A DNA stretch of 64,000 bases from Gammaproteobacteria bacterium (lineage in GTDB: Bacteria > Pseudomonadota > Gammaproteobacteria > Eutrophobiales > Eutrophobiaceae). The DNA is taken from contig JAJFKM010000048.1 in NCBI GenBank assembly GCA_021773215.1, positions 12,923-76,922 on the forward strand, written 5' to 3'. The translations under genes were made by a program, and so were the position numbers. Below the pieces are notes generated by a model. The model was not told the origin of the DNA. It did not search any database and saw only the letters and a list, made by a program, of their open reading frames with translations. Positions within the stretch are counted from its first letter, which is position 1, and every line of letters begins with the position of its first letter. This document shows, in pieces, positions 1-37,264 of the stretch.

Positions 1-727
1 TAATGCTTTTTATATATTTTTCTGTCGTTATTTGTGCTTTATCGAAACAAGTTATTTTTCCATTTTCTAACAATAATACTTTTTCACACAATGAATTTAT
101 CAATTGAAGATCATGCGACACAAAAATAAGTGTACCTCCATTTTCAACATATTCTTTCATCCAATTTATACATTTTATTTGAAACTCTAAATCGCCAACT
201 GAAAGAGCTTCATCAATAATTAATATGTCAGGTTTTAGTGAAATACATGAAGCAAACGCTACTCTTACCAGCATTCCTGAAGAATAGGATCCTACTGACT
301 GATCAATGTAATCGCCTATTGATGCGAACTCAATCATGTCTTGTAAATTATTTCTTATTTCTTTCTCTTTTAATCCATTCATTATGCCTTTGAGTATTAT
401 ATTTTCCCTTCCTGATAGTTCTGGATTAAAGTCAATGCCCAACTCCAAAATGGATGCTATGCTCCCGTTCACTTCAATATTACCTAACGTAGGTCTTTTA
501 ATTGAACTTATAATTTGTAATAACGTTGATTTTCCTGATCCATTTTTGCCAAGAAGACCTATTACATCACCTTTCTCAATTTCAAAATTAATATCACTGA
601 GTGCCCAATAGTCATCGTGATATTTTTTTCCAAACAGACTTACTGCTTCTTTTAACCTGTCTTTTTTAGAATTGAACAACCTATACTTCTTACTAATGTT
701 AGTAGCTTTTATAATTATATTATTCAT
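1..727 (-). CDS. wzt: ABC transporter ATP-binding protein (Wzt/TagH-like), C-terminus beyond window start
   Basis: I translated the reverse strand from the ATG at 727 by hand: MNNIIIKATNISKKYRLFNSKKDRLKEAVSLFGKKYHDDYWALSDINFEIEKGDVIGLLGKNGSGKSTLLQII... It has a Walker A (GKNGSGKST), an ABC signature (YSSGM) and a Walker B (ILIIDEALSVGD). It is not in the ORF track because it runs off the window. Confidence 0.85.
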   Translation of the reverse strand, partial: MNNIIIKATNISKKYRLFNSKKDRLKEAVSLFGKKYHDDYWALSDINFEIEKGDVIGLLGKNGSGKSTLLQIISSIKRPTLGNIEVNGSIASILELGIDFNPELSGRENIILKGIMNGLKEKEIRNNLQDMIEFASIGDYIDQSVGSYSSGMLVRVAFASCISLKPDILIIDEALSVGDLEFQIKCINWMKEYVENGGTLIFVSHDLQLINSLCEKVLLLENGKITCFDKAQITTEKYIKSI

Positions 728-735
728 CAATTTAA

Positions 736-1548
736 TTATATTGCGTCTGCAAACTCTGACTTTAATTTATTGAATACTATCGCACCGATGATAAATACAA
801 AAACATATACCGTAATATTTAATAAAGCATAATCATTAAAATAATTTACTGCATCTTGATACAGAAATGCATTCCTGTACCCATCCACAATATAAGTCAT
901 AGGGTTGTAGTTAATAATCCAACTATATTGATCCGGTATAATATTTTTATTCCAGACTATAGGTGTTGCCCAAAACCATGTATTTAGTAAGACTGGAACA
1001 AATTGACTAACATCTTTAAACAGGACATTGAGAGAAGAAAAAAACCAACTCAAACCTATCAAAAACAAACACAATATTAAAACATAATACAATATACTTA
1101 TGATTGTGAAATCTATATTAATATTATTAAAATATAAAATAATTAATAATATACACATATAAATCAATTGAGTTATAGCTGCGGTTAAAAGATAAACAAA
1201 TACTAATACTTCACTGGGGTATTGTGTTTTCTTTATCAAATGTAGATTTCCTCTAACACCATTAATGCTTGTGTTTAGTACTTCACTAAACATTAACCAT
1301 GGGATTAGACCTGAAACAAAATATGCAATGTATGGGATATCACCTGGAGTAGTTACTTTTAATCCTTTTGAGAATATCAACCAGTAAATCAATACGGTTA
1401 TAGTCGGGTTAACTATTGCCCATGTAATACCAATATATGTACCCGCATACCTTAATTTAAACTCTGTTTTCGCCATATAAATAATGGCATATTTTTGGCT
1501 ATAGATATTTTTAAAAAAGTTAATTATATTTTTCATTGAAGTTAACAC
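736..1548 (-). CDS. wzm: ABC-2 type polysaccharide exporter permease (Wzm/KpsM/TagG-like)
   Basis: 270-aa polytopic membrane protein with an N-terminal KTEFKLRYAGTYIGITWAIVNP motif typical of Wzm/TagG permeases. It is adjacent to the wzt ATPase, with an 8-bp gap. Confidence 0.85.
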   Translation of the reverse strand: MLTSMKNIINFFKNIYSQKYAIIYMAKTEFKLRYAGTYIGITWAIVNPTITVLIYWLIFSKGLKVTTPGDIPYIAYFVSGLIPWLMFSEVLNTSINGVRGNLHLIKKTQYPSEVLVFVYLLTAAITQLIYMCILLIILYFNNINIDFTIISILYYVLILCLFLIGLSWFFSSLNVLFKDVSQFVPVLLNTWFWATPIVWNKNIIPDQYSWIINYNPMTYIVDGYRNAFLYQDAVNYFNDYALLNITVYVFVFIIGAIVFNKLKSEFADAI

Positions 1549-1623
1549 TCTAAATTATTAAATACATGACATATAAACTTAATGAGTGCCGAGTTCTATT
1601 TTTATCTCATACCTGACATCTAA

Positions 1624-2193
1624 TTAAAGATGTCCAGATTTAATACATGTGAGTAGAGTAGTTGCATCATAAATCAATCCATCATGTATAATTTTTTCTA
1701 TCTGTTCAAATGTAAACCATTCAAATTTCACATGCCCGAGTTCATCTTCATTTTGTAGACGTTGGTCGTTTGCAATATTTGCTATATATAGATTCACCTT
1801 CGCAGAAATAACACCAGGCTCAGGAGCAATTGTGCCTAAAGCTTTTATCATGTCTTTATCACATGTTAATCCCGTTTCTTCCATAAGCTCTCTAATTGCT
1901 GCATCTTTCGCTGTTTCATCTTTATCAATAAAACCCCTCGGAACTTCCCACCCATATTCTCCAATGGGGTGGCGATATATATGAATTAAGCCATATTTAT
2001 CTTTGTATTTTGGCAAAATTGCTACACCAGTAATGCCATCCCTATTTTTTTGTTTTGGTTCAACAACAAGATAATCTTGCACTAAGGATAATTCGCCATC
2101 TTTTAAATGATCAAAATTAATTTTGAATACACTGTTTTCACAAACAGTTTTCCTATTATTTAAAGTAAAGGGAGCTTCACCCATAGATTTCAA
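1624..2193 (-). CDS. Nudix hydrolase (GDP-sugar/NDP-sugar hydrolase-like)
   Basis: Nudix box GFIDKDETAKDAAIRELMEETGL (Gx5Ex7REUxEExGU pattern). It sits inside the sugar biosynthesis cluster. Confidence 0.75.
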   Translation of the reverse strand: MKSMGEAPFTLNNRKTVCENSVFKINFDHLKDGELSLVQDYLVVEPKQKNRDGITGVAILPKYKDKYGLIHIYRHPIGEYGWEVPRGFIDKDETAKDAAIRELMEETGLTCDKDMIKALGTIAPEPGVISAKVNLYIANIANDQRLQNEDELGHVKFEWFTFEQIEKIIHDGLIYDATTLLTCIKSGHL

Positions 2194-2201
2194 CTACCCT
2201 T

Positions 2202-3140
2202 TTACACATTACTGTATCCCGATTGTTTAATCATCTGATAGCCTTTAATAAGCTCCTGAATTCCATCGTCTAACGAAAACGTAGTTTTGAAACCAGTCTT
2301 TTCTATCTTTTCATTCGAAACAATATAATTTCTTTGATCAGGGTCCTTACCTAATTCTTCTTCAAGAAAAATAAATTCTGGTAAATATTTTTGTATTCTT
2401 TCACATAATTCTTTTTTTGATATATTCGTATCAGATAGTCCTACGTTATATATTTCACCCTTCATTGAATCAAAATTTTCAATCCCATGTATAAAAACAC
2501 GGGCCACATCCCTGACATGCAGATAATTTCGTTTAAAATGACTTTCAAATAAAACAACAAATCGGTCATTTACTGCTCGATAGACAAAGTCATTAACCAG
2601 TAAATCTAATCTCATTTTTATTGACATTCCAAACACTGTTGCCAACCTGAAACTAATTGCCTGTCCATGCTCGAGCAATGCCTTTTCTATTTCAACTTTC
2701 TCTATTGCATATTGCGATATTGGATTTAGTTCAGATTCTTCTGTGCAAAAATTATTTTCGTCACCACTACCGTATGCACTGTTTGTTGTGGGCATTAATA
2801 CTCTTTGCTGTTTTGAAAGTAATTTCAGCATTAATTTGATGCCATCCTTATTAACCGTACTGGCACCTACTGGATCTTTTGAACAGATTGGAGCACCTAC
2901 ATAAGCAGCAAGCGGGATAATAAGATCTGACTTTGCCATTAAAGGCTTAATAACTTCTTGCAATCTAATATCACCATTTATCACATTGAAATTCTTGTGA
3001 TTACATTGATGCGCCAGACTATTTTGCTTGTACATAAAATTATCCAACACAGTGATATGGTGGCCCTGTTTTAATAGTTCTGGCACCATGATAGAACCAA
3101 TATAACCTGCTCCTCCTGTGACTAGGATGTTATAACTCAT
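2202..3140 (-). CDS. NAD(P)-dependent sugar epimerase/dehydratase/reductase (extended SDR)
   Basis: N-terminal Rossmann motif ILVTGGAGYIGS and a 312-aa length typical of UDP-/GDP-sugar epimerases or 4-reductases. Confidence 0.8.
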   Translation of the reverse strand: MSYNILVTGGAGYIGSIMVPELLKQGHHITVLDNFMYKQNSLAHQCNHKNFNVINGDIRLQEVIKPLMAKSDLIIPLAAYVGAPICSKDPVGASTVNKDGIKLMLKLLSKQQRVLMPTTNSAYGSGDENNFCTEESELNPISQYAIEKVEIEKALLEHGQAISFRLATVFGMSIKMRLDLLVNDFVYRAVNDRFVVLFESHFKRNYLHVRDVARVFIHGIENFDSMKGEIYNVGLSDTNISKKELCERIQKYLPEFIFLEEELGKDPDQRNYIVSNEKIEKTGFKTTFSLDDGIQELIKGYQMIKQSGYSNV

Positions 3141-3142
3141 GC

Positions 3143-3889
3143 TTATTGTGCTCCTGTACTAATTAGTAAATCATCACTTAAAAACGTTTGTGCTTTATGA
3201 AAATCATCAGGAATACCAATGTCGATAAAGTCTCCATCATCCATAAATCCACAAACATCATGAGTAGAGATGATTGTTGGCAAAATGTCATTCTCAAGAG
3301 ATATACTTTTATTCATGGCATCAGGCCACTCACTAAATAATTCTGAATTTATAATGTATACACCACCATTGATTTCCCCTGGTTCCTCTTTTTCATTTGG
3401 CTGTTCTATTGTGATTAACCTACCAGTCTCATTAACACACATGCGGTGATATCTTCCTGCATTTTCTACCTGTCGTAACGACAAGGACAAGTTAGCCTTT
3501 GAACTAGAATGTAATTTATACATTCGTTCTGGGTCTATCAAAAATAATGTGTCTCCATTAATAAGGAAGAAATCTTTTTCCAGACAGTTTTCATTTAATA
3601 CCTTTAAGAGCGCACCACCTGTACCCAATGGTTTGTCCTCAATGGCATATGTAATTGGTATGCCTTTAAATGTTGAACCAAAATGGTCTATTATTTGTTG
3701 ATGTTTATAACCTACTGATATAATGAAATGACATGCATTATTTTTTATCCAATACGACAATAAATACTCTAGGAAAGGCCTGCTTCGAACAGAAGCCAAA
3801 GGTTTTGGAACGTCATTAACTACTTTCTGTAGTCGTGAGCCTATGCCACCGGCTAGTACGACTACTGTATATCCGGATTTAGTTTCCAT
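3143..3889 (-). CDS. Sugar-1-phosphate nucleotidyltransferase (HddC/GDP-heptose or NDP-hexose pyrophosphorylase-like)
   Basis: N-terminal VVLAGGIGSRLQ...PKPL motif of the NTP_transferase family; 248 aa. Confidence 0.8.
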   Translation of the reverse strand: METKSGYTVVVLAGGIGSRLQKVVNDVPKPLASVRSRPFLEYLLSYWIKNNACHFIISVGYKHQQIIDHFGSTFKGIPITYAIEDKPLGTGGALLKVLNENCLEKDFFLINGDTLFLIDPERMYKLHSSSKANLSLSLRQVENAGRYHRMCVNETGRLITIEQPNEKEEPGEINGGVYIINSELFSEWPDAMNKSISLENDILPTIISTHDVCGFMDDGDFIDIGIPDDFHKAQTFLSDDLLISTGAQ

Positions 3890-3891
3890 CG

Positions 3892-5058: not shown

Positions 5059-5076
5059 TTTATTTCCAATAGATTG

Positions 5077-6126
5077 TTATTTATCGTTTGAAATTGTTAA
5101 TTTAATTGCGTCTGCAATTTTTTCACTCGTTGGGTAGTAATATTGCTCTAATGTAAAGCCCGCTGGTGTTGGCGAATCAGGCAGTCCTACTCTACGGACA
5201 GGTGCTTTTAGATATTCAAATGCCTTCTCCGCAACGAGGCATCCCACTTCAGCACATACACCGCCCATAGCCCACCCGGTATCTACGACTAATATTCGTC
5301 CTGTCTTTTTAACTGATTCAATAATAATCTTTTCATCGAGTGGCTTGATAGTTCTAAGATCTATTACATCCGCTGTAACACCCTCCTCAGCTAAACTATC
5401 AAGTGCTATTTGTGCTAATGCAATAGCATGTGATGAACCAACGATTGTCAAGTCTTCGCCTCTAGTACGGTAAATTCCTTCACCTATAGGTATTTTATAG
5501 ATCCCTTCAGGTACATATCCGTTCTGTTTCATTAACCACCGGTGTTCAAAAATTACTACAGGATTGTTATCCGCAATCGCAGACAACATTAAACCTTTTG
5601 CATCATAGGGTGTGCTTGGCATGATAATCTTTAAACCAGGGACGGATAAAAGTAAACCTTGAACCGCTTGTGAGTGTTGCGCACCTGAACCCCAGCCACG
5701 TCCGATCGCAGACCAAATAACCATAGGAACATTCGTATGTCCTTCGTCCATGTAATGCATTTTCGAAGCATGATTCACGAGTTGATTAAATGTTAATAGC
5801 AAAAAATCTGGTCTATTATGCAAATAGACTGGTCGCATACCATTCATCGCAGCACCGGCACACATTCCTGTCATTCCCTCCTCGGATAAAGGAGTATCGA
5901 ATACACGTTCTTCACTAAATTTTTTGTACAAGTCTGTCGTTACCCCAAACATACCAATCGGGTCATTGACGCCTTGACCTAGAATAAAGGCCTTCTTATC
6001 GAGCTCAAGTGCTAAATCAAGTGCTTCATGCAAAGCATCTGTGTATGACAAGTGCCTTTCATTACTATCTGCTAAATTTTCAGAATTATTAGTTTGTGTA
6101 TTTAAAAATGCTTCTGCCCAGGGCAT
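5077..6126 (-). CDS. TPP-dependent 2-oxoacid dehydrogenase E1 component, beta subunit-like (transketolase C-terminal fold)
   Basis: 349 aa; motifs EEGMTGMCAGAAMNGMRP and GLKIIMPSTPYDAKGLM typical of PDH/acetoin dehydrogenase E1 beta. Confidence 0.8.
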   Translation of the reverse strand: MPWAEAFLNTQTNNSENLADSNERHLSYTDALHEALDLALELDKKAFILGQGVNDPIGMFGVTTDLYKKFSEERVFDTPLSEEGMTGMCAGAAMNGMRPVYLHNRPDFLLLTFNQLVNHASKMHYMDEGHTNVPMVIWSAIGRGWGSGAQHSQAVQGLLLSVPGLKIIMPSTPYDAKGLMLSAIADNNPVVIFEHRWLMKQNGYVPEGIYKIPIGEGIYRTRGEDLTIVGSSHAIALAQIALDSLAEEGVTADVIDLRTIKPLDEKIIIESVKKTGRILVVDTGWAMGGVCAEVGCLVAEKAFEYLKAPVRRVGLPDSPTPAGFTLEQYYYPTSEKIADAIKLTISNDK

Positions 6127-6144
6127 GACTATTTTCCTTGGTAA

Positions 6145-7167
6145 TTAATCTGCGTATACGTGTTGCATCAGACTATCTTCTGATGGATTCGGACTACTGA
6201 CAGCGTGATGAAAAGCTTCATCAATCTCAAGCTGCGTCCTATTTTGGAAATCATTAATTGTATTTTCATCAATTAAATTATGATTTTTCATTTCATTTTG
6301 AAGAGTGTGAATCGGGCATATATTCTGCCAACTATCAACCTCATCAAGTCCTCGATATCCTGATTTACTGTCATCGCCCGCACCACCATGCCCACGCAAT
6401 CTATAAGCTACATTTTCAATAAATGTAGGCCCTCCTCCATTTCTAGCTTTTTCAGCGGCTTCCAATACAGTTTCATAGACGAGCAAAAGGTTAGTTGCAT
6501 CTATTTGTTTAGCTTCGATGCCAAAACCTGCCGCTTTGTCAAAGAGCTCAACTGATGCAGGTTGCCGCTTATCAAGAGGTGTACAAACTGAATAAAAATT
6601 ATTTTCACAGAGATATATAATCGGTAATTTTTTTAATATCGCAAAATTAAGTGACTCCCAAAAGGCACCCTCTTCCATTGCGGCATCACCAAAGAACACA
6701 CCTATGACACGGCCTTCATTCTTCATCTTAGAAGCCATCGCTGCACCATTAGCAATCGGCACTATCCCAGAAACTATTGCGGAGGTACTCATCATGCCTA
6801 CACTCTTATCTATCAAGTGCATTGAGCCTCCACGAGAACCACAACAACCATTTGCACGACAAAATAATTCTGACATCATCGCCTTCAGATCACCGCCTTT
6901 TGCCAGATAGTTCCCATGTGTACGATGGCTGCTATAAATATGATCTGTCACTTTAAGAGCAGCACACGCACCAACTGATGTTGCTTCTTGGCCAATCACC
7001 AAATGAATTGGTGATTTCATCTGGTCTTCATGATATTTGGATTCGATCGTTTCCTCTATCATTCTAATTCTTATCATTGAGAATAAGAGATTTAGCAGTA
7101 ATTCTTTAGAATACTTATTGATATCAGTATTCGAATATCCTTGCCCTTTGTATTTGTATTTAACCAT
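6145..7167 (-). CDS. TPP-dependent 2-oxoacid dehydrogenase E1 component, alpha subunit-like
   Basis: 340 aa; motifs SHRTHGNYLAKGGD and GDAAMEEGAFWESLNFA (TPP-binding GDG-like region) as in PDH/AcoA E1 alpha. It is paired with the E1 beta gene. Confidence 0.8.
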   Translation of the reverse strand: MVKYKYKGQGYSNTDINKYSKELLLNLLFSMIRIRMIEETIESKYHEDQMKSPIHLVIGQEATSVGACAALKVTDHIYSSHRTHGNYLAKGGDLKAMMSELFCRANGCCGSRGGSMHLIDKSVGMMSTSAIVSGIVPIANGAAMASKMKNEGRVIGVFFGDAAMEEGAFWESLNFAILKKLPIIYLCENNFYSVCTPLDKRQPASVELFDKAAGFGIEAKQIDATNLLLVYETVLEAAEKARNGGGPTFIENVAYRLRGHGGAGDDSKSGYRGLDEVDSWQNICPIHTLQNEMKNHNLIDENTINDFQNRTQLEIDEAFHHAVSSPNPSEDSLMQHVYAD

Positions 7168-8186
7168 TAGGACACCCCGGAAACTTTTCCGTTAACTTTA
7201 TCGGGTTTATAGTAAACAATTCGTGAACCTTCTCTTTCAAAACTAAAAGGTACATAAATCAATTTGTTGAGTTTTTCTTTAACTATTTTTTGTTTTTCTT
7301 TTGGAACATAAAATAAAATAAATCCACCGCCACCTGCACCAAGTAATTTCCCACCTATAGCACCAGCATTTTTTGCAACTTTGTAAATTTCATCGATATA
7401 CTCAGTGCTGACCCCGTCGGATAAAATTTTCTTAAGTTTCCATGTTTCATCAAGTAGAAGGCCAAAATCATCTAAAAAACCAGAACCTGAATTTAATATT
7501 TTTATTGCATCATCAACATGGCTATAAATTTCTCTTAATTCTTGCACTCGATTATTGATATTTTCAATTTTTTTCTTTTCAATTTCTGAAGCTGTTCTTG
7601 AAATGCCGGTGAAAAACAACATCAAGTTTTCTTGTAAATGATGAATGCGCTCACTTGAAACCACCATTGGTTTTACAGCATGCGTCCCATCAGCATTAAA
7701 AACTATATGGTTAAGTCCTCCGTGTGCTACCGCTAGTTGATCTTGTGACCCTACATTTTCTTTAATTATATTTTGTTCTACGTGTATTGCTTCATCACCC
7801 AACTCTTCAGATGACTTGTATTTACCTTTTAAAGCATAAATTGAATTAAGTAAACCCACTGTAAAAGACGAGCTTGACCCTAAGCCCGATCTAGCAGGCA
7901 AGTCACCATCATGATGAATTTCCAAGCCTTGATCACATTTTAATTCTTCTAATATTGCCTTTACAGAAGGATGTTTAATTTCAGAGTAATGCTGAACATT
8001 CTCAATTAATGAATAAACAATCCTATATTTGTGCTGGAAAAATGGGGGAAGATAACGACAACTAATATAACAATATTTATCTATGGCACTCGATAATACT
8101 TGCCCACCATTCTCCAAATACCAATCGGGCAAGTCGGTGCCGCCACCAAAAAATGACACTCTAAATGGTGTTTTGCTAATAATCAT
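7167..8186 (-). CDS. GHMP-family sugar kinase (HddA/heptose-7-P kinase or galacto/fucokinase-like)
   Basis: N-terminal PFRVSFFGGGTDLPDWY matches GHMP sugar kinases of the HddA type. The GHMP ATP motif is GLGSSSSFTVGLL. Its start overlaps the E1 alpha stop. Confidence 0.75.
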   Translation of the reverse strand: MIISKTPFRVSFFGGGTDLPDWYLENGGQVLSSAIDKYCYISCRYLPPFFQHKYRIVYSLIENVQHYSEIKHPSVKAILEELKCDQGLEIHHDGDLPARSGLGSSSSFTVGLLNSIYALKGKYKSSEELGDEAIHVEQNIIKENVGSQDQLAVAHGGLNHIVFNADGTHAVKPMVVSSERIHHLQENLMLFFTGISRTASEIEKKKIENINNRVQELREIYSHVDDAIKILNSGSGFLDDFGLLLDETWKLKKILSDGVSTEYIDEIYKVAKNAGAIGGKLLGAGGGGFILFYVPKEKQKIVKEKLNKLIYVPFSFEREGSRIVYYKPDKVNGKVSGVS

Positions 8187-9688
8187 TTATATAGCGCCCG
8201 TGCTAATTTAACTTCAACCATGTTTTGAACATGGCTATAAACATCATCGCCAAATTTAGTCTTCACCAGATCTAGATAACGTTTATTTGTGAAATACTTT
8301 GTAAACGCCTCATCTCGAAACTTTAGGACTTCTGCTGCGGATATATGTTCTGTTGGTAATGGCTGAGTTTCATAACTATGCTGCGAATAACCAATCCAGT
8401 TATCAGGCAACTTCCATTCTTGTTTCTTAGCGTACAGATACAATGGAGAACCAGGATATGCCATGGCTGAATAAAAATTGGCAAATTCGCAATTTGCTTC
8501 AATTGCCATGTCCAAAGTCTCTTGCATTGTATTTAAATCATCATCCGGCAATCCAAAAATATAATTGCCAATAACATTAATATTTGCGTCTTTAATCTTT
8601 CCAATAATGTTCAGAATATCACTTGTCCCAAAACGACCTTTTTCCACACCATCACGAACATGTTTACTAGCAGACTCTATTCCTAATGCTAACCATCTGA
8701 TGCCAGCTGCTCGTAGACTCTCCAGATATTCATCTTTAATAGTATCAATTCGAGCATACGCCCAAATATTAAGATCATACCCTCGATCTATTATTCTTTC
8801 GCATATCCCAAGCACATGATTTTTATTCAGCACAAACATTTCATCAACAATTTTTATATTTTTTATACCGTAATCATTAACCAGAATATCAATTTGACCT
8901 ATAATGTTATCGGGCGACCACATTCGATATGATGACTTACCAAATGGGGCATTAATACAGCAGAAGCTACAATGATAGGGACAACCAAGACTCGTATGTA
9001 TTGATGCATAAGGTTGCCTATGGTTGATATCTTCAAAACAGTGCCAATTGTGTGCCCTATACTTTTCCATTGGCAATAGATCAAGTGCAGGTTCTGGCAT
9101 GGCACTATCCAAATCAGAAATCAATTGTCCCGGCTTCGTAAACTTTATTTTATTATTATCGTAATAATAAAGACTAGGAACATCAGAAAAACCAGCATTA
9201 TTATTCAAATTTTCCATTACCTGAAAAATTGTCTCAGGCCCTTCACCACTACAAACAAAATCAACATCTTCTTCTCTCAATGTTTGTTCTGGCAATGCAG
9301 CGGGATGTGTACCTGTCATTAATATCTTAGTATCAGGCAATAATTTTTTAATTGCTGTGCAGGTAACACTTGCAGCAGGCATATTCTGTGTCGAAGCAGA
9401 AGGCTGGTATCCATACACAACCATAACAATCAAGACAGGATTAAAATGCTTTGATATGATTTCAGCAACTTGTTCCGGGGATAAGCCAAATGCAGGAGCA
9501 TCTATAATATCGACAGACGCTTTTTTATTTCTCATATAACTTGCAAACAACGCAATTAAACTAGGTGTTTCAATTGCAGAAAGATTTGATGCTAGATTCT
9601 GATATACAGCATGCAAATTCCCGGGATTAATGAAGACAATATCGATGTCTTCACGGTCTTTTATTGTTAATTCATCTAGTGTCTTCAT
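8183..9688 (-). CDS. Cobalamin-binding radical SAM enzyme (class B radical SAM, probable C-methyltransferase)
   Basis: 501 aa. N-terminal B12-binding-like domain (DIVFINPG...) followed by CxxxCxxC (SLGCPYHCSFCC). Its stop overlaps the GHMP kinase start by 4 bp. Confidence 0.75.
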   Translation of the reverse strand: MKTLDELTIKDREDIDIVFINPGNLHAVYQNLASNLSAIETPSLIALFASYMRNKKASVDIIDAPAFGLSPEQVAEIISKHFNPVLIVMVVYGYQPSASTQNMPAASVTCTAIKKLLPDTKILMTGTHPAALPEQTLREEDVDFVCSGEGPETIFQVMENLNNNAGFSDVPSLYYYDNNKIKFTKPGQLISDLDSAMPEPALDLLPMEKYRAHNWHCFEDINHRQPYASIHTSLGCPYHCSFCCINAPFGKSSYRMWSPDNIIGQIDILVNDYGIKNIKIVDEMFVLNKNHVLGICERIIDRGYDLNIWAYARIDTIKDEYLESLRAAGIRWLALGIESASKHVRDGVEKGRFGTSDILNIIGKIKDANINVIGNYIFGLPDDDLNTMQETLDMAIEANCEFANFYSAMAYPGSPLYLYAKKQEWKLPDNWIGYSQHSYETQPLPTEHISAAEVLKFRDEAFTKYFTNKRYLDLVKTKFGDDVYSHVQNMVEVKLARALYK

Positions 9689-9689
9689 C

Positions 9690-10739
9690 TTAGTAGGCTA
9701 TTGAGTCAATTTTATTTCTTCTAAACATATTATAGGTTTTAGATACAAACATACCGAACGCCGTCTTTATCATAAAAAAGTGTCCTGCGAACCTTACGAA
9801 ATATTTAATTCTTATAATTAATGGGAGCCCTTTATCTCCAAGGAAATTATCGTGAAACCACCTGCAACAATTTAAATAATTCTTATGCCTATCACTTAAT
9901 GTATAAGTATCATTAATTAATGGCACTTCAGTATTTTCAATAATTGATTGCAACCGTGCTGCCTGCAACTCTCTCAAGTCACGTAATGAAATAAACGCAA
10001 AATCATCATGGCAGTCAGTTCGTTGAAAAGATTCGTTATTATCATGGTGTGAATTTAACTTTAGGTGCGTAAATTTAATATCAGCTAAATAGATTATTCT
10101 TTCGTAGGATTTATTTACCAATCTCTTAAACACATCCATTAAATGTGTGTCAATGAACAATCGTTTATATAATGGTGGGTACGGATAGACCAATGCTTCA
10201 CATGTTTTACGCGATAAAATAGGGAAAGTACTTAATTTGTCCTGATTAAACCCATCATTAGGATAAGCAAGGTATATCTCATCATCAATTTTATCTATTT
10301 CTTTTATTAATAATTTATCCCAGTTACTGGTTTCTATAATGACATCATCATTTATCAACATTATAATGTTTCCAGAACAGTATCGATAGCAAACAGAATT
10401 ATATTGCCCCATAGTTAATCTTGGACCGATTATTTTTAATATGCTTACATCCTCGTTCACAAATTCACGAGTTGATGAATCATCGTCATCCACGTAAATT
10501 ACCACTTCAATATATTCTAGATTACACGACTTTCTAATCAGGCTTTGAAACAATCTATCCAGATGTTCTATTCTATTTCTTGTTGGTAACAATAATGAAA
10601 TTTTTATTTTCTTATCTTTTTTATAATTATGTCTTTCGATAAGAAGATCCAAACTGTCATAATCAGATATATCGGCAAGCTTATCTTTCAGATTATTTTT
10701 ATCATGATAATTTGATTTTGAATTCAACATTAATAGCAC
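9690..10739 (-). CDS. Glycosyltransferase (GT-A fold, family 2-like)
   Basis: KISLLLPTRNRIEHLDRLFQSL followed by the acidic cluster YVDDDD; 349 aa. Confidence 0.6.
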   Translation of the reverse strand: MLLMLNSKSNYHDKNNLKDKLADISDYDSLDLLIERHNYKKDKKIKISLLLPTRNRIEHLDRLFQSLIRKSCNLEYIEVVIYVDDDDSSTREFVNEDVSILKIIGPRLTMGQYNSVCYRYCSGNIIMLINDDVIIETSNWDKLLIKEIDKIDDEIYLAYPNDGFNQDKLSTFPILSRKTCEALVYPYPPLYKRLFIDTHLMDVFKRLVNKSYERIIYLADIKFTHLKLNSHHDNNESFQRTDCHDDFAFISLRDLRELQAARLQSIIENTEVPLINDTYTLSDRHKNYLNCCRWFHDNFLGDKGLPLIIRIKYFVRFAGHFFMIKTAFGMFVSKTYNMFRRNKIDSIAY

Positions 10740-10754
10740 CTAAGCATTTTTCTC

Positions 10755-11330
10755 TTATCTCTTTTCCCAAAGGATTAATTGAGTACGTTGTTCTAATTGT
10801 GGCTTGAGATTCTTATATTCTTCTAATGTTAAGCATAGTGTTCGTATCTTTCTTTCAATATATTTTTCAGTTTTATCAACTAAATCTTCAAGGTTAGCAG
10901 TATCAATATCACCAACGAGAACCAAATCAATCAATCCAGTGTCTTTTCCCTGAGCATAGTCATCAATCAAAAATGCTTGCTTTAAATTTCCCAATCGCTC
11001 CAGAATGCTTTCAAGGATCTGGTCCATGCCGAGTGCTTTTTTTACCATGGAATGTAATTCAGGAAATAACGCGTGGTCATTATTTGCCTGATAATAGATA
11101 TTCCTACCTTTTTTATGGCATGAGATCAGATCAGCATCGCAGAGTTGTCGCAGCTCTTCCGACACCTGACTTGATGAAATGTTAAATTCATTTGAGAGTT
11201 CTCTAAGATAAGCTTGCTGCTCATAATTCAAGAATAATCTCATAAGAATTTTGATTCTGGTTTTTGATGTAATTAAACCGGAAAAGATAGACACATATCC
11301 ACCACTAGTTCGTTCTGTATTTAAGAACAA
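10755..11330 (-). CDS. Winged helix-turn-helix transcriptional regulator (ArsR-like N-terminus) with uncharacterized C-terminal domain
   Basis: N-terminal IKILMRL...YLRELSNEFNISSSQVSEELRQLCDADLI resembles an ArsR/HTH_20 DNA-binding domain; 191 aa. It is embedded between GT genes. Confidence 0.5.
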   Translation of the reverse strand: MFLNTERTSGGYVSIFSGLITSKTRIKILMRLFLNYEQQAYLRELSNEFNISSSQVSEELRQLCDADLISCHKKGRNIYYQANNDHALFPELHSMVKKALGMDQILESILERLGNLKQAFLIDDYAQGKDTGLIDLVLVGDIDTANLEDLVDKTEKYIERKIRTLCLTLEEYKNLKPQLEQRTQLILWEKR

Positions 11331-11500
11331 GATAGCATAAAGTCATGATTTATCAACGCTTTAATCGGTAATAGGTCACAGTTTTAATAGATATATACTG
11401 TACAATTGGATGCGAAAACGAATATATAGTAACGAAGAATTAATTTTAATTTGTACGGAGGGTTAGTCTTTAGAAAACTTATCGAGTTTAAATATTTTAT

Positions 11501-12715
11501 TTACTTCTCACTACAAATTTTGTCGATCAACTTAGTGTATCTGCTACTTACCAACTGCCAATCAAATTTTTCTCTCGCTTTTTGCCTTCCTGTAGAAGCT
11601 AGTTTTCTTGAATACGTTTTATCCATCAATAACGTGATGATTTGTTTTGCTAAATCATCTGAGTTCCCAGGAGTAAATAATAAACCTGATATATTATGTT
11701 CTATAACCTCTTTAATAGGTTCTAGCGCAGAAGCGATCACTGCACAACCACAGCCTAATGCCTCGATTGTTACTAATCCAAGACCTTCTCTGTCACCTTG
11801 TGGGTCAATGATGGATGGTATAACTGCTATATTTGCAGATGAATATAGATCTGGTAATTCAGTATTTGAAACACCACCATAGATCTTCACATTATCATCT
11901 AGTAATAATTTTCTTATTTTACTATCAACCTCACCACGCAACGGCCCATCTCCTACGAGGATCAATTCAACCGATGGAACTGAATCTTTAACCAATGATA
12001 TTGCATCGATCAATACATGAATTCCCTTTTTCGCTACAAATCTTCCAACAAAAATAATTTTATTGTCTTGTCTTTCTATATTTACTGAAGGGATAAACAA
12101 ATCTTGTAAATCTACACCCATAGGTGAAACACTGATCTTATTTGTCGTTAATTCCAGGTTTTTGCAATCATTTTTCATTGCCTCACTCACAACACATAAG
12201 TGTGTACAATTTTTAGCCGTCCATTTTTTTAGCCATTGCATGAGTCCGCCATTAAAGGCATAAAGATCCCCCCCGTGTGAAGTACAAAGAACGGGGGGTT
12301 TAGTTTTAGTGAAAAACTTGATTATAAAAACACAAATAAGTGATTGAGGTATTAACCAGTGAGAGTGAAGAAGATCGTATTTTTGATTTTTTAGCCTATT
12401 TATAATCGTGATAGATTGAAATAGTAAAAAGAAAGGCACTAAAAAATAATTTAATTTTTTATTTTTAAGATTCGCATTAATACCTCCATTATACGCCAAT
12501 GTCTGGAAGCTATCTGTAAAGTACTTGTATCGATAAACATTTACTCCTTCCATTGTTTCATGCCGTTTTGCACCATACGCATGTGGTGCTATGACATCAA
12601 CTTTAAAGCCACAACGTACATAATGTTTTGATAATTCATAAACGAAAGGGGGAGTTGCATCGTTTTTCCATCGTGGGAATGTTGAAGTGACGACAAGTAG
12701 AGACTTCCTATCCAC
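11501..12715 (-). CDS. Glycosyltransferase family 4 (GT-B fold)
   Basis: 404 aa; C-terminal EALGCGCAVIASALEPIKEVIEH matches the GT4/RfaG-like E-x7-E region. Confidence 0.75.
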   Translation of the reverse strand: MDRKSLLVVTSTFPRWKNDATPPFVYELSKHYVRCGFKVDVIAPHAYGAKRHETMEGVNVYRYKYFTDSFQTLAYNGGINANLKNKKLNYFLVPFFLLFQSITIINRLKNQKYDLLHSHWLIPQSLICVFIIKFFTKTKPPVLCTSHGGDLYAFNGGLMQWLKKWTAKNCTHLCVVSEAMKNDCKNLELTTNKISVSPMGVDLQDLFIPSVNIERQDNKIIFVGRFVAKKGIHVLIDAISLVKDSVPSVELILVGDGPLRGEVDSKIRKLLLDDNVKIYGGVSNTELPDLYSSANIAVIPSIIDPQGDREGLGLVTIEALGCGCAVIASALEPIKEVIEHNISGLLFTPGNSDDLAKQIITLLMDKTYSRKLASTGRQKAREKFDWQLVSSRYTKLIDKICSEK

Positions 12716-12739
12716 TATTTATATATCGATGTATCGCAA

Positions 12740-13651
12740 TCAATTATCATCTTTCTGATTTTTACTATAAATCAGAAAAGTAATTTGTTCCGATAATAAA
12801 CCTATCAAAAAAACAAGAATTGAAGTCAAGAACAATAAAGCACTCATATTAGTAAATCTTTCAAGGTAATAATATGTGTAGGCATAATAGCTAAGTCCTG
12901 TAATAAAAACGGCAAAACTAGCAGGACCAAATATTTTGAGCGGAGAGTATAATGCAGTGATTCTAAAAATTATCAATAAAAATCTAATCCCATCTTTTAC
13001 TAATTTAATGTGACTAGTACCAGTTCGTTTCTCGCAACTGATTGGAACATATTTAATGCTGTATCCAGATCGAAAAAAAGCCATAGTAATGGTTGTTGGA
13101 TAAGAAAAACCATTCGGCAATAAATATAAAAAGTTTTTAAACATATTTGCTTTCACAGCTCTAAAGCCAGAAGTTAAATCAAGTATTTTATGTCCTGACA
13201 TATAACTGGCTAGCTTATTATAAAACAGATTAGCTATATACCTTGGAAAGCTCGTTTGAGATTTCTTATTCCGAGCGCCAATAACCATATCGTTTCCATT
13301 GTCAATTTCAGCAAGAAATTTTTTAATGTCTTCTGGCGAGTGCTGACCATCTGCATCCATAAAAACCAATATGTCACCAGTTGCCGTGCGCGCACCTGCT
13401 TTTATCGCTGCACCATTTCCTTTTGAATACGGATGGCTAATTACTTTTACAGCATGACTATTACAAATCTCGATTGTGTCATCTTCGGAACCATCATTGA
13501 CAACTAGGATTTCTGCTTCTGGACAACAAGCACGTATTCGAGGCAATAATTTATTTAATGATTCTCCCTCATTTTTTGCTGGCAAGATAATACTGACTGA
13601 TGTTTCCATTTTTATAGAATCATTCATTTTCCTGAATAGGTCTTTGTTCAA
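12740..13651 (-). CDS. Polyprenyl-phosphate sugar transferase (GT2, ArnC/GtrB/DPM1-like)
   Basis: VSIILPAKNEGESL...ILVVNDGSEDDT...VFMDADGQH are hallmark ArnC/DPM1 motifs. It has C-terminal TM helices and overlaps the downstream-upstream GT-C gene by 32 bp. Confidence 0.8.
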   Translation of the reverse strand: MNKDLFRKMNDSIKMETSVSIILPAKNEGESLNKLLPRIRACCPEAEILVVNDGSEDDTIEICNSHAVKVISHPYSKGNGAAIKAGARTATGDILVFMDADGQHSPEDIKKFLAEIDNGNDMVIGARNKKSQTSFPRYIANLFYNKLASYMSGHKILDLTSGFRAVKANMFKNFLYLLPNGFSYPTTITMAFFRSGYSIKYVPISCEKRTGTSHIKLVKDGIRFLLIIFRITALYSPLKIFGPASFAVFITGLSYYAYTYYYLERFTNMSALLFLTSILVFLIGLLSEQITFLIYSKNQKDDN

Positions 13652-15530
13652 TCATTGAAATTTGCTCTATTAATTTATTGTAAACCCAACTATTTCCTTG
13701 CTGCTCAAAACTATACAACAACTCGTTTTTTCTTATTTCAGCCTCACTAGCTTTACCTAAACTAGATAATATCTTTATTTCTCTAATCTTCTTTTCAATA
13801 CTGGGATATAAATTATCTGATAAACGTAAGTATTCTAAGGCTTTTATGAAATTACCGCTAAATATTTCAAGTCCTGATAAATAATCATAAAATTGTGCAT
13901 GGTTAACATTGTCATATTTATGATTATTTATCAGGTGATTTATTAAGTTTTTTAATTTTTCTACATCAATTATCGGGCATTTATTTTTAAGTACTTGCAA
14001 TGTCAGATTATCAAGAACAACGACAACATTAAACCCAGTTGGAATACTCACATCTGCAATATTATAGAATTCATTCCAATCTTCATCAACGCTCCTCAAG
14101 CCCCTTATACAATTATCCAGTTTTATCTGCTCAGCATAGGGGTAGAATGATTTGGGACTAAGTTTTTTTAAATCCTCAATAATCAGTCGGGCTTGTTCAT
14201 GATCTTTATTTATTTTCAGATTATAAAGATCAGTTTTAGCTCTGATAGAATCAGGTTGATTTCTGGCCCATTCATTTATTTGTAATGCAGGTTTCGACCA
14301 AAGATCTACCTCGATCACTGTAATAGCTAATATCAAACCGCAATACATGAAAGCTGTTAAAATAATCCATAGACGATGCTTGACTATTGTGGACAAATAA
14401 ATAAAGCCACAGGAAATGCCTAATATTAGGCTAAAGGAAGGTAGGTAATTCCTATGTTCAAAATAAGGTTCCAGATTCAAATAGGTCGATTCAAGCAAAT
14501 GTCCACCCAGAAACCAAAGTATTGCAAAACTATATATAGGCTGCGACTTTCTTTTTATCAAGGCTGTTGTGAGTAGCGTCAACAATATAATCCCACTTAA
14601 CATAAACCTACTCGAATAAATACTCCTTACGATTTCATAATTATCATGATACAAACTGAATGAAGATGGACTTGGTAATAGAATATTCTTTATGTATTCA
14701 GCCAAAACAACAACTTCAGTAAGTATTTTTTCTATAACTCCATAATCCTTAAAAGCATAACCATATAGATTCGCCTCGAATTTAAATGCAAGATAAATAA
14801 TCAATAGCGTTAATGGCGATATCAAGAAAAACATTGTCCAATGAGACCAGTATTTTGGTCTCTGCAAATGCATCAGGATCGTTATTTCCAAAGATAAAAT
14901 ATAAATCAGTAAAAGGATTCCATTTTCTTTACATAGAATCGCCAACGCTGTAAAAAATAAAATTAATCCGCCAGTGAGACAATCTTTATATAAACTCTGT
15001 CTGTCTGCATGTTTTAACCTCATGAGGAGATAGGTCAAAACACCGAGTAACATAAAAAACGTAGACAATAATGTCATCCGTTGAATCACATACAAGGTCG
15101 TTGTTAACTGAATAGGGTGCAGCAACCACAAGCCTGTGACAATTATTGGGATGTACTTTCGAAATGTGCCCTCTTTAAATAATATAGTTAGATAAGCACT
15201 GATAATGTAGATCAAACATCCATTTAGAAGATGAATGCCCAGATTAACTAACTTAAAATCAAACGGCGCACTAGGCCAACTTTCATGTTGTAAGGCGAAC
15301 GTTACTAAAGATAATGGCCTACCAGAAGGTCCTGCAATATCGGTAGCAAATATAAAATAAGGAAACCCATAAGTCTTTATGGTGTCCAAATCACGCAAAT
15401 TAGAAAAATCATCTAGTAAAAAACGACTATCCAATCCTGGCCAATAGATCAATGTTGTTAGCATCAATAAGCAAAGCAACATCATAAACTGCCAACGATT
15501 AATAGTTGGTTTTTCTTTAATCATTATCAT
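13620..15530 (-). CDS. GT-C fold membrane glycosyltransferase with C-terminal TPR-like domain (PMT/ArnT/TfpW-like)
   Basis: 636 aa with about 11 predicted TM segments. There is an acidic LLDDFSN motif in the first extracytoplasmic loop and a C-terminal soluble region of about 200 aa with TPR-like repeats. It lies immediately downstream of pilA. Confidence 0.65.
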   Translation of the reverse strand: MIMIKEKPTINRWQFMMLLCLLMLTTLIYWPGLDSRFLLDDFSNLRDLDTIKTYGFPYFIFATDIAGPSGRPLSLVTFALQHESWPSAPFDFKLVNLGIHLLNGCLIYIISAYLTILFKEGTFRKYIPIIVTGLWLLHPIQLTTTLYVIQRMTLLSTFFMLLGVLTYLLMRLKHADRQSLYKDCLTGGLILFFTALAILCKENGILLLIYILSLEITILMHLQRPKYWSHWTMFFLISPLTLLIIYLAFKFEANLYGYAFKDYGVIEKILTEVVVLAEYIKNILLPSPSSFSLYHDNYEIVRSIYSSRFMLSGIILLTLLTTALIKRKSQPIYSFAILWFLGGHLLESTYLNLEPYFEHRNYLPSFSLILGISCGFIYLSTIVKHRLWIILTAFMYCGLILAITVIEVDLWSKPALQINEWARNQPDSIRAKTDLYNLKINKDHEQARLIIEDLKKLSPKSFYPYAEQIKLDNCIRGLRSVDEDWNEFYNIADVSIPTGFNVVVVLDNLTLQVLKNKCPIIDVEKLKNLINHLINNHKYDNVNHAQFYDYLSGLEIFSGNFIKALEYLRLSDNLYPSIEKKIREIKILSSLGKASEAEIRKNELLYSFEQQGNSWVYNKLIEQISMIEQRPIQENE

Positions 15531-15646: not shown

Positions 15647-16075
15647 TTACTTACAAGCGCCTGGTAACAATGAACCGGGAATATTACCCGCATTACAAAC
15701 CCATTGTTTTCCGTCAGTACTTGACATTATGAATGTGCTACTCACAATCTTTGAGTTAACACCAGTAGCTTTCATAGTAGCCGTCATTGTGACTGCTGGA
15801 GCGGTACCGGTTAGAACGATAGTATTAACGTACTTACCTTGATCAGTACCACCGACTGCTGTCACGGTAGCAGGAACAGAACCAACGTCCGAGATATATT
15901 CAACCAAAGGCGTTTTCAGACCAGAAGTCAGTGACATGGCTTCAGAAACTTGCGCACGCGCCGTATAATCAGAGTACGCGGGTATGGCAACTGCCGCTAA
16001 AATACCGATAATCGCGATAACGATCATCAATTCAATAAGAGTAAAACCTTTTTGTAACTTATGCATTGGAAACAT
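15647..16075 (-). CDS. pilA: Type IV major pilin (T4a, PilA/PilE-like)
   Basis: MKLQKGFTLIELMIVIAIIGILAAVAIPAY is a class III leader with the G/F cleavage site and Glu+5. It is 142 aa with a C-terminal disulfide loop C...C-K. An AAGGAGA Shine-Dalgarno lies 6 nt upstream. Confidence 0.95.
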   Translation of the reverse strand: MFPMHKLQKGFTLIELMIVIAIIGILAAVAIPAYSDYTARAQVSEAMSLTSGLKTPLVEYISDVGSVPATVTAVGGTDQGKYVNTIVLTGTAPAVTMTATMKATGVNSKIVSSTFIMSSTDGKQWVCNAGNIPGSLLPGACK

Positions 16076-26936: not shown

Positions 26937-26981
26937 TTTTTTATCAGCAATTAACATATTTAATATTAATTTGAACACGTC

Positions 26982-37259: not shown

Positions 37260-37264
37260 TCATT

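Follow-up and report, generated by a model that had tools for sequence, protein, structure and literature searches.

The gene at positions 8183..9688 (minus strand) of the window, the whole stretch of 64,000 nucleotides analyzed here, is assigned from its sequence and modeled fold to a radical SAM enzyme of class B, a putative cobalamin binder. It belongs to a large, highly conserved and uncharacterized family whose orthologues, found in many phyla at 55–92% identity, share one gene cassette. From the content of this cassette one would expect a 3-deoxy sugar of nine carbons, branched or carbocyclic, and not simply a methylated hexose, and the enzyme very probably performs the radical step in a pathway toward such a GDP-heptose-derived C9 sugar. 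Our best full explanation, a conserved nucleotide-heptose pathway in which this enzyme catalyzes the one radical step, is proposed more tentatively. Class-B radical SAM enzymes, which carry a B12-binding domain, form a very large and mostly uncharacterized group, with very few members known to act on sugars and, to our knowledge, none in nucleotide-heptose or surface-glycan pathways. What is new here is the cassette context of the orthologues, which predicts a GDP-3-deoxy-4-keto-heptose bearing a C2 branch at C4.

Architecture and relatives of the radical SAM enzyme

The open reading frame starts with ATG and its translation of 501 residues, which contains SLGCPYHCSFCCINAPFG, has thousands of homologues with E values of about 0, which excludes chance. 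The gene is thus real, as called in an initial annotation of this DNA, which had also claimed a B12-binding-like N-terminus and a CxxxCxxC radical SAM core. Both domains were recovered with Pfam: B12-binding at residues 45–154 (44.8 bits, E 1.4e-11, gathering cut-off 32.1) and Radical_SAM at residues 232–394 (57.9 bits, E 1.9e-15, gathering cut-off 29.5). The three cysteines of the motif (Cys236, Cys240 and Cys243, in CPYHCSFC) are invariant in 33 homologues, as are G126-T127-H128-P129 and E149-G150-P151 in the N-terminal domain. The AlphaFold2 model (pLDDT 83.7, pTM 0.87) resembles the two-domain class-B structures AprD4, TsrM, OxsB, CysS, MgmA and TokK (Foldseek E 1e-19 to 1e-14), with TM values against solved class-B enzymes of about 0.6–0.7. 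The N-terminal domain passes the B12-binding threshold, and the protein groups with class-B enzymes and not with the sulfatase maturases that the initial annotation had named as the contrary outcome. A search of the 64-kb window with Rfam gave no match at all, cobalamin riboswitches included, which is not decisive on a B12 requirement.

Among curated NCBIfam models, HpnJ (TIGR03471, 157 bits) and BchE (TIGR02026, 146.1 bits) rank first, followed by ApyD, and methylase models reach 47–99 bits (PhpK 99, RiPP C-methyltransferase 94, MJ0865 87, HpnR 70). Since all these scores are far under the respective family cut-offs, the likeness to HpnJ and BchE is to be read as a lean only. The HpnJ match aligns residues 60–471 with model positions 48–439 of 472 and both proteins have the same two-domain architecture, but the equivalog cut-off of 577.6 sets the enzyme apart from HpnJ itself; unlike the HpnJ setting, neither the window nor the orthologous loci contain hopanoid genes, the context here being a GDP-heptose cassette. 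HpnJ is a hopanoid-associated B12-binding radical SAM protein for which the proposed reaction, starting from a glucosamine head group, yields a five-membered cyclitol; the substrate is thus a sugar and the product a carbocycle. The BchE match is full length (residues 17–475) and many orthologues are named BchE in the JGI annotation, but its score lies below the equivalog cut-off of 481.35 and its substrate class is entirely different, and there are no bch genes nearby and no photosynthesis context. As the anaerobic Mg-protoporphyrin IX monomethyl ester oxidative cyclase, BchE is of the B12 type among radical SAM enzymes and closes a five-membered carbocycle beside a carbonyl. Both top models would represent carbocycle-forming B12-radical SAM enzymes and not methyltransferases.

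The nearest solved structure, by sequence (55.3 bits) as well as by fold (Foldseek E 1.6e-19, TM 0.68–0.74), is AprD4 (PDB 6FD2), with an identity of only 17–18% in the structural alignment; the AprD4 family model NF033070 gives 73.7 bits and its cut-off of 500 is not reached. AprD4 is a radical SAM 1,2-diol dehydratase of apramycin biosynthesis which acts on a hydroxyl-bearing carbon of an aminosugar. It has the class-B fold yet is not known to use cobalamin, in contrast to the N-terminal domain described here, which exceeds the Pfam B12-binding threshold. GenK, GenD1 and Fom3 share enzyme class and domain order with the enzyme, and act on unactivated sp3 carbons of sugars or small hydroxylated substrates. 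The methylase models that were scored, which are related to these enzymes, fall below HpnJ and BchE.

The operon and its conserved cassette

All genes described below lie on the minus strand. The stop codon of the radical SAM gene overlaps the start codon of a GHMP sugar kinase gene (7167..8186) as ATGA (...CTATATAAATGATTATT...), in agreement with the translational coupling to a sugar kinase noted in the initial annotation. The kinase (Pfam GHMP_kinases_N/C) is distantly HddA-like, i.e., related to the heptose-7-phosphate 1-kinase family, scoring 134 bits against the NCBIfam HddA model (cut-off 600), and its nearest PDB matches are the heptose kinases 3K85, 4N3O and 4USK. It is followed by the two subunits of a ThDP-dependent enzyme. 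The E1 alpha subunit is PDH-E1-like (6145..7167; Pfam E1_dh, 219.9 bits), scores 289.9 bits with PDH_E1_alph_y, below the cut-off of 393.85, and has human PDH E1 alpha as its top PDB match (153 bits). The E1 beta subunit (5077..6126; Pfam Transket_pyr and Transketolase_C) reaches 288 bits with the PDH E1 beta model, under the cut-off of 321. As no lipoyl E2 gene is found in the operon, the E1 pair stands without an E2/E3 partner, and E1 alpha may be a subunit of a C2 (acetyl) carboligase.

Further along the operon, the product of 3892..5058 matches E. coli ColD/WbdK (PDB 2GMS) over its full length with 438.8 bits, and a histidine takes the place of the active-site lysine (FSHHISTMEGG against ColD FYSHHIATMEGG). 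Both features expected of a ColD-type enzyme are present, and the protein is predicted to be a PMP-dependent GDP-4-keto-sugar 3-dehydrase. A sugar-1-phosphate nucleotidyltransferase (3143..3889; Pfam NTP_transferase) has HddC, the GDP-heptose-forming type, as its top NCBIfam model, at 162 bits for a cut-off of 300. The adjacent SDR protein (2202..3140) matches PDB 6VO6/6VO8 over residues 1–311 with 373 bits; these entries are C. jejuni Cj1427 by their titles in a Foldseek search, for which the single-sequence query model was poor (pLDDT 34.5). The operon continues with a NUDIX hydrolase putatively acting on nucleotide-sugars or nucleoside-diphosphates (1624..2193; Pfam NUDIX, 53.8 bits), and a Wzm-type ABC-2 permease (736..1548; Pfam ABC2_membrane, 78.4 bits) lies at its distal end.

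Immediately upstream of the radical SAM gene, a divergent GT2-like glycosyltransferase gene (9690..10739; Pfam Glycos_transf_2, 26.2 bits) has a stop codon ending one base before the ATG. Beyond it are genes for a GT4 (11501–12715) and a GtrB/ArnC-like GT2 (12740–13651), both assigned with Pfam, and for a polytopic membrane protein of 636 residues with no Pfam match (13620–15530). These three genes (11501..15530), which are syntenic in two other loci (L001 and L026), likely encode transfer machinery. The glycan operon is located immediately downstream of pilA, encoding a type IV pilin (15647..16075; Pfam Pilin 62.7 bits, N_methyl 41.6 bits). Sugar-nucleotide enzymes, glycosyltransferases and the permease thus surround the gene, as expected from the glycan-operon setting claimed in the initial annotation; given this setting, the class-B architecture and the kinase coupling, its proposal of a radical-modified sugar was a sensible one. 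The heptose/ThDP cassette and the pilin neighborhood are context absent from that annotation.

At least 507 matches to the radical SAM enzyme were obtained among species-representative genomes. The cassette is carried by hundreds of species, among them members of the Legionellales, Chlamydiae, Patescibacteria, Omnitrophota, Rhodospirillales and Burkholderiales. Identity between phyla is 55–68% and the nearest syntenic locus, in a Pseudomonadota MAG, is at 80%; the family has no sharp boundary, identities sliding smoothly from 61% to 36% in the representative search. Among the 35 orthologous loci flanked by 8 kb or more on each side, the GHMP kinase and a two-subunit ThDP enzyme are each present in 32, the ColD-like and Cj1427-like genes each in 31, and the HddC-like nucleotidyltransferase in 27. 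GmhA (10/35), GmhB (9/35) and the NUDIX hydrolase (9/35) are less frequent, and an orthologue of the GT2-like gene adjoins the cassette at seven of the 35 loci. An L-2-hydroxyglutarate oxidase is encoded at 11 loci (349.7 bits, above the cut-off of 299). This enzyme matches the Cj1427 function, including its cycle from alpha-ketoglutarate to L-2-hydroxyglutarate (PMC10680097), and therefore lends independent support to Cj1427-type chemistry. From the similarity to Cj1427 and from the oxidase, which points to coupling with alpha-ketoglutarate/L-2-hydroxyglutarate, the SDR protein is predicted to be a GDP-heptose C4-dehydrogenase.

At other loci a split transketolase stands in for PDH-E1 alpha/beta, and cassettes of the two types interleave in the tree of the radical SAM enzyme, which indicates that the radical step does not rely on the last carbon of this unit of two carbons and counts in favor of the cyclase reading given below. 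One locus (L031), and in part another (L028), retains a core of radical SAM enzyme, kinase, E1 alpha and E1 beta, with the ColD-like, Cj1427-like and transferase genes missing within 10 kb, so that the radical SAM enzyme could act before nucleotide activation. In two Legionellales loci (L017 and L029), the radical SAM gene is followed by genes for an MTAP-like phosphorylase, a class II aldolase, a PRTase and an MtnA-like isomerase, with MetK in addition in L029. Such 5'-deoxyadenosine salvage genes placed directly after the radical SAM gene imply stoichiometric use of SAM; they fit an active SAM-consuming enzyme, and fit a methylase as well as a reductive cyclase.

Proposed pathway and nature of the radical step

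The enzymes of the pathway are assigned by homology and their order is the one we infer. The Cj1427-like SDR would oxidize C4 with alpha-ketoglutarate, leaving the 6-OH in place, and the ColD-like enzyme would then remove the 3-OH. The stand-alone ThDP enzyme, PDH-E1 alpha/beta here and a split transketolase elsewhere, would attach a C2 acyl anion at the C4 ketone, yielding GDP-3-deoxy-4-C-acetyl(glycolyl)-heptose. This C9 scaffold is the predicted substrate of the radical SAM enzyme, and the finished sugar would end up at the cell surface, on an ABC-transporter glycan or on the pilin as acceptor.

For the radical step itself, the reading that we favor, speculative as it is, makes the enzyme a cyclase forming a C7–C8 bond and hence a caryose-type carbocyclic sugar. 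The 5'-deoxyadenosyl radical would abstract a hydrogen atom from C7, and the C7 radical would attack C8, the carbonyl carbon of the branch. The oxygen radical thus formed would be reduced, possibly via the corrinoid, the closure of the five-membered carbocycle giving a 4,8-cyclo-3,9-dideoxy-nonose of the caryose type. The two top models, HpnJ and BchE, set against methylase models of at most 99 bits, lean toward such a cyclase. A cyclization using up the branch ketone would also need no ketoreductase, and neither a ketoreductase nor a C4 reductase is found in the minimal cassette of the window. Counting against a cyclase, radical addition onto a ketone carbon is energetically demanding; against the heptose pathway as a whole, the kinase is only distantly HddA-like and neither GmhA nor GmhB is encoded in the 64-kb window.

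C-methylation comes close to cyclization in likelihood, though doubtful when taken by itself. The enzyme would then be a cobalamin-dependent radical SAM C-methyltransferase whose target in the heptose-derived sugar is an unactivated sp3 carbon, for example converting the C7 CH2OH into CH(OH)CH3 as in GenK and Fom3, or a secondary into a tertiary carbinol as in GenD1, and it would yield a sugar of ten carbons that is C-methylated, bears the C2 branch and retains the branch ketone. Characterized class-B enzymes are mostly methyltransferases (see the list in PMC12931638), among the fold matches are TsrM, CysS, MgmA and TokK, the B12-binding domain is over the Pfam threshold and the matches to the four methylase models named above are significant. 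The salvage genes and MetK of the Legionellales loci fit heavy SAM consumption, and a backbone carbon as the methylation site would agree with the way E1 and transketolase cassettes interleave. Nevertheless, the top curated models are non-methylases, which leaves the GenK/GenD1/Fom3-like methyltransferase call of the initial annotation unsupported; no gene handling SAH (AhcY or Pfs, hydrolase or nucleosidase) was seen in the cassettes; and we know of no natural sugar matching a 3-deoxy-4-C-acetyl-C-methyl-heptose. That AprD4, itself acting on a sugar, tops both the PDB sequence search and Foldseek raises the prospect of an AprD4-like, cobalamin-independent 1,2-diol dehydratase/oxidase working on the C6–C7 diol of the heptose. 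Its aldehyde or ketone product would be extended by the ThDP enzyme into a linear higher-carbon deoxy sugar, transketolase- and DXS-type enzymes having aldehydes as their canonical acceptors, and the four-gene core loci suggest that the radical SAM and ThDP enzymes act as a pair. This is improbable: the AprD4 family model scores below HpnJ and BchE, and the 4-keto group left by the Cj1427-like and ColD-like enzymes would stay unreduced in a minimal cassette devoid of a C4 reductase.

Slighter still are the chances of another sugar reaction, such as an epimerization (e.g., D-glycero to L-glycero at C6), a ring contraction or a rearrangement, or of the enzyme being a neighbor with a non-sugar function. 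HpnJ, as proposed, would exemplify ring contraction by a B12 enzyme. Epimerases are known among radical SAM enzymes, and OxsB is a B12 enzyme that contracts a ring (PMC12931638). Nothing specifically favors epimerization, and the epimerase suggested by the initial annotation finds no support. A few loci (L036 and L061) carry the radical SAM gene with no cassette within 10 kb, as an unrelated neighbor might; against this, co-occurrence with the cassette at about 90% of the well-flanked loci, across many phyla, together with overlapping stop and start codons, is a strong argument for a shared pathway.

Caryose as a possible type of product and the significance of the radical step

Caryose has nine carbons, is 3-deoxy, keeps its 6-OH, bears tertiary hydroxyls at C4 and C8 and ends in a methyl group; on five counts it matches a heptose plus a C2 unit. 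We know of no established route for its biosynthesis. That the family is a previously unrecognized sugar carbocyclase, building the cyclopentane from C7 and the C4-branch carbonyl and supplying the missing route to caryose-type monosaccharides, is an unlikely proposition. The caryose producer, Trinickia/Burkholderia caryophylli, is absent among the best 120 matches of a Burkholderiaceae query, in which only Herbaspirillum species are named, and this result is uninformative. The LPS region of Coxiella burnetii may hold a PDH-E1, radical SAM and kinase set; its O-antigen genes were dropped as evidence, since radical SAM, PDH-E1 and B12 go unmentioned in two papers on C. burnetii LPS. No relevant literature was found on radical SAM with GHMP kinase and PDH-E1 in O-antigen, on caryose or on the LPS of Herbaspirillum lusitanum, one of the cassette carriers. 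Two other products were considered and set aside. Bradyrhizose (7+2+1 carbons) is not known to be 3-deoxy, which conflicts with the ColD-like 3-dehydrase. The genes for bradyrhizose are still undefined (PMC4743980). Erwiniose (heptose, C2 and methyl) is not needed, as its origin is accounted for by ErwE, which joins a C4 keto-acid and a CDP-hexose (PMC9306805).

Since the Cj1427-like and ColD-like partners have characterized, purifiable homologues with known substrates, the radical step can be tested in vitro with GDP-heptose. The answer would reveal either how bacteria make sugars with higher carbon numbers, carbocyclic or branched, of which caryose is one, or a new sugar C-methylase. Were the enzyme a carbocyclase, the spread of the cassette over hundreds of species of many phyla would make carbocyclic C9 sugars a common decoration of cell surfaces and not the curiosity of one plant pathogen, and the type IV pilin of the source organism may bear them. 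In Legionellales, Coxiella-like symbionts and Chlamydiae-related bacteria, the sugar made by this pathway probably modifies the surface or the pilin and is antigenic there.

Relation to known heptose and branched-sugar pathways

The cassette follows the logic of C. jejuni capsular heptose and of yersiniose/erwiniose biosynthesis, namely 4-keto formation, 3-deoxygenation and acyl branching at C4. Known heptose pathways finish with epimerases and reductases and, unlike the cassette, include no enzyme of the ThDP or radical SAM type. YerE and ErwE are single-chain, acetolactate-synthase-like proteins and not E1 alpha/beta pairs or split transketolases. For the first steps, Cj1427 and a C3-dehydratase yield GDP-D-glycero-3-deoxy-4-keto-heptose in vitro (PMC10680097). 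For the branching step, YerE and ErwE provide a precedent for ThDP enzymes placing acyl branches on NDP-4-keto-3-deoxy sugars (PMC9306805), their substrates being CDP-hexoses whereas a GDP-heptose is predicted for the cassette.

The radical SAM enzyme and its relatives

The radical SAM gene is intact (8183-9688, minus strand, ATG start) and encodes a protein of 501 residues whose translation contains SLGCPYHCSFCC. Pfam detects a B12-binding domain at residues 45-154 (44.8 bits, threshold 32.1) and a Radical_SAM core at residues 232-394 (57.9 bits, threshold 29.5), bearing out the B12-binding-like domain and the CxxxCxxC core proposed in the initial annotation. In an alignment of 33 homologues, neither the three cluster cysteines (C236, C240 and C243) nor the GTHP (126-129) and EGP (149-151) motifs of the N-terminal domain vary. 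The expected translational coupling to a sugar kinase was also found, the stop codon of the gene and the start codon of the downstream GHMP kinase overlapping as ATGA, and the GT2-like gene on the upstream side stops one base ahead of the ATG. The AlphaFold2 model (pLDDT 83.7, pTM 0.87) matched the solved two-domain class-B radical SAM structures of AprD4, TsrM, OxsB, CysS, MgmA and TokK (Foldseek E 1e-19 to 1e-14, TM ~0.6-0.7). Cobalamin binding is predicted from the domain match, AprD4, which is not known to use cobalamin, being a precedent for the fold.

In a search of NCBIfam models, the enzyme reached no curated cut-off. The highest scores were obtained with HpnJ (157 bits, cut-off 577.6) and BchE (146 bits, cut-off 481), followed by ApyD (118 bits), TIGR04295 (104), PhpK (99), Ladderane (96), RiPP C-methylase (94), BzaD (88), MJ0865 (87), AprD4 (74) and HpnR (70), and the best PDB sequence matches were AprD4 (55 bits) and MgmA (9CCB, 54 bits). 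On sequence grounds, it is thus placed in an uncharacterised class-B subfamily which leans toward the non-methylating HpnJ/BchE group, every similarity being remote. HpnJ and BchE are the two carbocycle-forming B12 enzymes. The subfamily is widespread: every one of the 8000 candidates that were scored proved significant, identities being 65-69% across Gammaproteobacteria, Betaproteobacteria and Gemmatimonadota, and species-representative genomes encode a relative at 507 or more places. At E ≤ 1e-30, 2,488 cluster representatives (50% identity) were retrieved, the edge of the family not being sharp. Many relatives (37-54% identity) are 650-1170 residues long and match in two stretches (P0249, P0254, P0257, P0258, P0265, P0282, P0297 and others), implying that some members of the family carry large insertions or are fused to other domains.

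Gene content of the cassette and its partner enzymes

The neighbors of the gene in the window were mapped onto 80 orthologous loci and all ORFs within 10 kb were clustered; the census was rerun with several queries per family and counted over the 35 loci that have 8 kb or more of flanking sequence on each side. The GHMP kinase and the two-subunit ThDP enzyme are each present in 32 of the 35 loci, the DegT-type (ColD-like) gene and a 312-residue Cj1427-like SDR in 31, and the nucleotidyltransferase in 27, followed by an Fcl-like SDR (16), an FAD oxidase (11), GmhA (10), GmhB (9) and a NUDIX protein (9). Among the carriers are Legionella maceachernii and further Legionellales, a Coxiella-like endosymbiont, Simkania, Herbaspirillum lusitanum, Omnitrophota, Patescibacteria, Bdellovibrionales, Rhodospirillales, one cyanobacterium and Poribacteria. 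The window holds a minimal version (kinase, transferase, Cj1427-like SDR, ColD-like protein, E1 alpha/beta, radical SAM enzyme and NUDIX); this cassette has no ketoreductase, and GmhA, GmhB, the Fcl-like SDR and the L-2-hydroxyglutarate oxidase were found nowhere in the 64 kb. In locus L031, and in part in L028, the radical SAM enzyme, kinase and E1 alpha/beta occur without the remaining cassette genes within 10 kb, so that the radical step might take place ahead of nucleotide activation. In the strongly reduced 997-kb genome of the Coxiella-like endosymbiont (L052), the Cj1427-like SDR adjoins the radical SAM gene and the next genes are a GHMP kinase that appears truncated to its N-terminal domain (170 residues) and a short Fcl-like piece; in this organism the pathway is perhaps being lost.

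The best PDB matches of the HddA-like kinase are heptose kinases, and both this protein and the HddC-like transferase score below their NCBIfam equivalog cut-offs; together with GmhA and GmhB, they would supply GDP-heptose. In PDB sequence comparison, the DegT protein matches Escherichia coli ColD (2GMS) over its full length with 438.8 bits and has the diagnostic replacement of the active-site Lys by His (FSHHISTMEGG), and we regard it as an orthologue-level match. Similarly, the 312-residue SDR matches over its whole length (373 bits) 6VO6 and 6VO8, entitled in the PDB as Campylobacter jejuni Cj1427. The latter enzyme recycles its bound NADH with alpha-ketoglutarate, yielding L-2-hydroxyglutarate, and with a C3-dehydratase produces GDP-D-glycero-3-deoxy-4-keto-heptose in vitro (PMC10680097). 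This chemistry is independently backed by the cassette FAD oxidase, which, with 349.7 bits against a cut-off of 299, is a genuine L-2-hydroxyglutarate oxidase and whose carriers include loci L017, L013, L019, L023, L033, L034, L040, L050, L056 and L065. The L-2-hydroxyglutarate released by the Cj1427-like dehydrogenase is presumably returned by this oxidase to alpha-ketoglutarate, a by-product recycling module which, to our knowledge, has no prior description in heptose pathways.

As ThDP enzyme, the cassettes encode a PDH-E1 alpha/beta pair without E2, or its fused form, and in other lineages a split transketolase. The two-carbon branches of avilamycin are installed by such a PDH-E1-like pair, AviB1/AviB2. 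In yersiniose and erwiniose, ThDP enzymes put acyl branches on NDP-3-deoxy-4-keto sugars (PMC9306805). Three further genes are conserved in the transketolase-type cassettes of Rhodospirillales (L069-L075 and L079). One encodes a dehydratase of the IlvD family, scoring 781 bits against the dihydroxy-acid dehydratase subfamily; another product resembles D-2-hydroxyacid/glycerate dehydrogenases, and the third (cluster c24, ~300 residues) was judged from its sequence alone to be a dehydrogenase. The three may be the source of a hydroxypyruvate-type C2 donor for transketolase.

The pilin neighborhood

The cassette belongs to a minus-strand series which contains, in order, pilS and pilR (21697-24656), a GT2-GtrA fusion (20529-21629) and a 664-residue protein (18474-20468) with a spermidine-synthase-like methyltransferase-fold domain (residues 274-402), apparently a membrane protein, judging by its size and by the glycosylation genes on either side of it. 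The type IV pilin gene pilA (15647-16075) is flanked by a TMEM260-like, protein O-mannosyltransferase-type GT-C (16412-18409) and, on the other side, by a 636-residue polytopic membrane protein without Pfam hit (13620-15530) and a GtrB-like GT2 (12740-13651). Directly downstream of pilA comes the glycan operon, the series continuing with a GT4, an ArsR regulator, the GT2-like gene, the cassette and Wzm. With pilB and pilC (35544-38485, plus strand), the segment 12740-24656 looks like a pilin glycosylation island, resembling Pseudomonas aeruginosa TfpW/TfpO. In other loci, the cassette is accompanied by a small GT2, a DedA-like protein and GT-C-like proteins, which suggests transfer to an acceptor in the periplasm, possibly the pilin in the window organism, by way of a polyprenyl-phosphate sugar. 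The G+C content is 0.30-0.39 in the glycan/pilin region (1-14000) versus 0.38-0.42 in the housekeeping region (24000-38000; sucCD, nadE, bamD, rluD and clpB), which would fit a glycan island exchanged horizontally.

The radical step

It is probable that the radical step belongs to a pathway leading to a C9 sugar derived from GDP-heptose. In the order that we infer, GDP-heptose would be converted to its 4-keto and then its 3-deoxy-4-keto form, and a C2 acyl branch would be placed at C4, giving a C9 scaffold for the radical SAM enzyme. This heptose-modification cassette is undescribed and is directly testable, since its upstream enzymes have characterised homologues.

In Legionella maceachernii (L029, 8058-12418) and a Legionellales UBA2469 MAG (L017), four genes directly follow the radical SAM gene, encoding an MTAP-like phosphorylase, a class II aldolase, a phosphoribosyltransferase and an IF-2B/MtnA-like isomerase, with MetK (SAM synthetase) additionally in L029; in the betaproteobacterial loci L013, L019 and L023, an MTAP-like gene and a phosphoribosyltransferase gene lie just upstream. 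We take this set to be the 'DHAP shunt' for 5'-deoxyadenosine salvage, in L029 and L017 apparently dedicated to the radical SAM enzyme. It implies stoichiometric SAM consumption, ruling out a purely catalytic use of SAM, and is as compatible with a methylase as with a reductive cyclase. Three reactions would fit. C-methylation, suggested in the initial annotation, is a priori the most probable reaction of a class-B enzyme and is here nearly as likely as the carbocycle formation set out below. The initial interpretation is partly supported: a class-B enzyme does sit in a sugar cassette, and its remote lean is toward the non-methylating HpnJ/BchE group. An AprD4-like diol dehydration preparing an aldehyde for ThDP chain extension is unlikely; with the minimal cassette, the 4-keto group would then stay unreduced.

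Our tentative proposal is carbocycle formation, in which a C7 radical, formed by H-atom abstraction, would add to the carbonyl of the branch. Such a cyclization would require no reductase in the cassette and agrees with the closest curated families being the two carbocycle-forming B12 enzymes. In a neighbor-joining tree of 79 orthologues, E1-type and transketolase-type cassettes interleave, the window enzyme being sister to two transketolase loci, so the radical chemistry does not hinge on the terminal group of the C2 unit (CH3 or CH2OH). The product of this cyclization would be a 4,8-cyclo-3,9-dideoxy-nonose, the skeleton of caryose, the carbocyclic sugar of Burkholderia caryophylli. The best 120 matches of a Burkholderiaceae query named no caryose producer, which is uninformative on this link. 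The resemblance to caryose extends to its nine carbons, 3-deoxy position, retained 6-OH, two tertiary alcohols and terminal methyl group.
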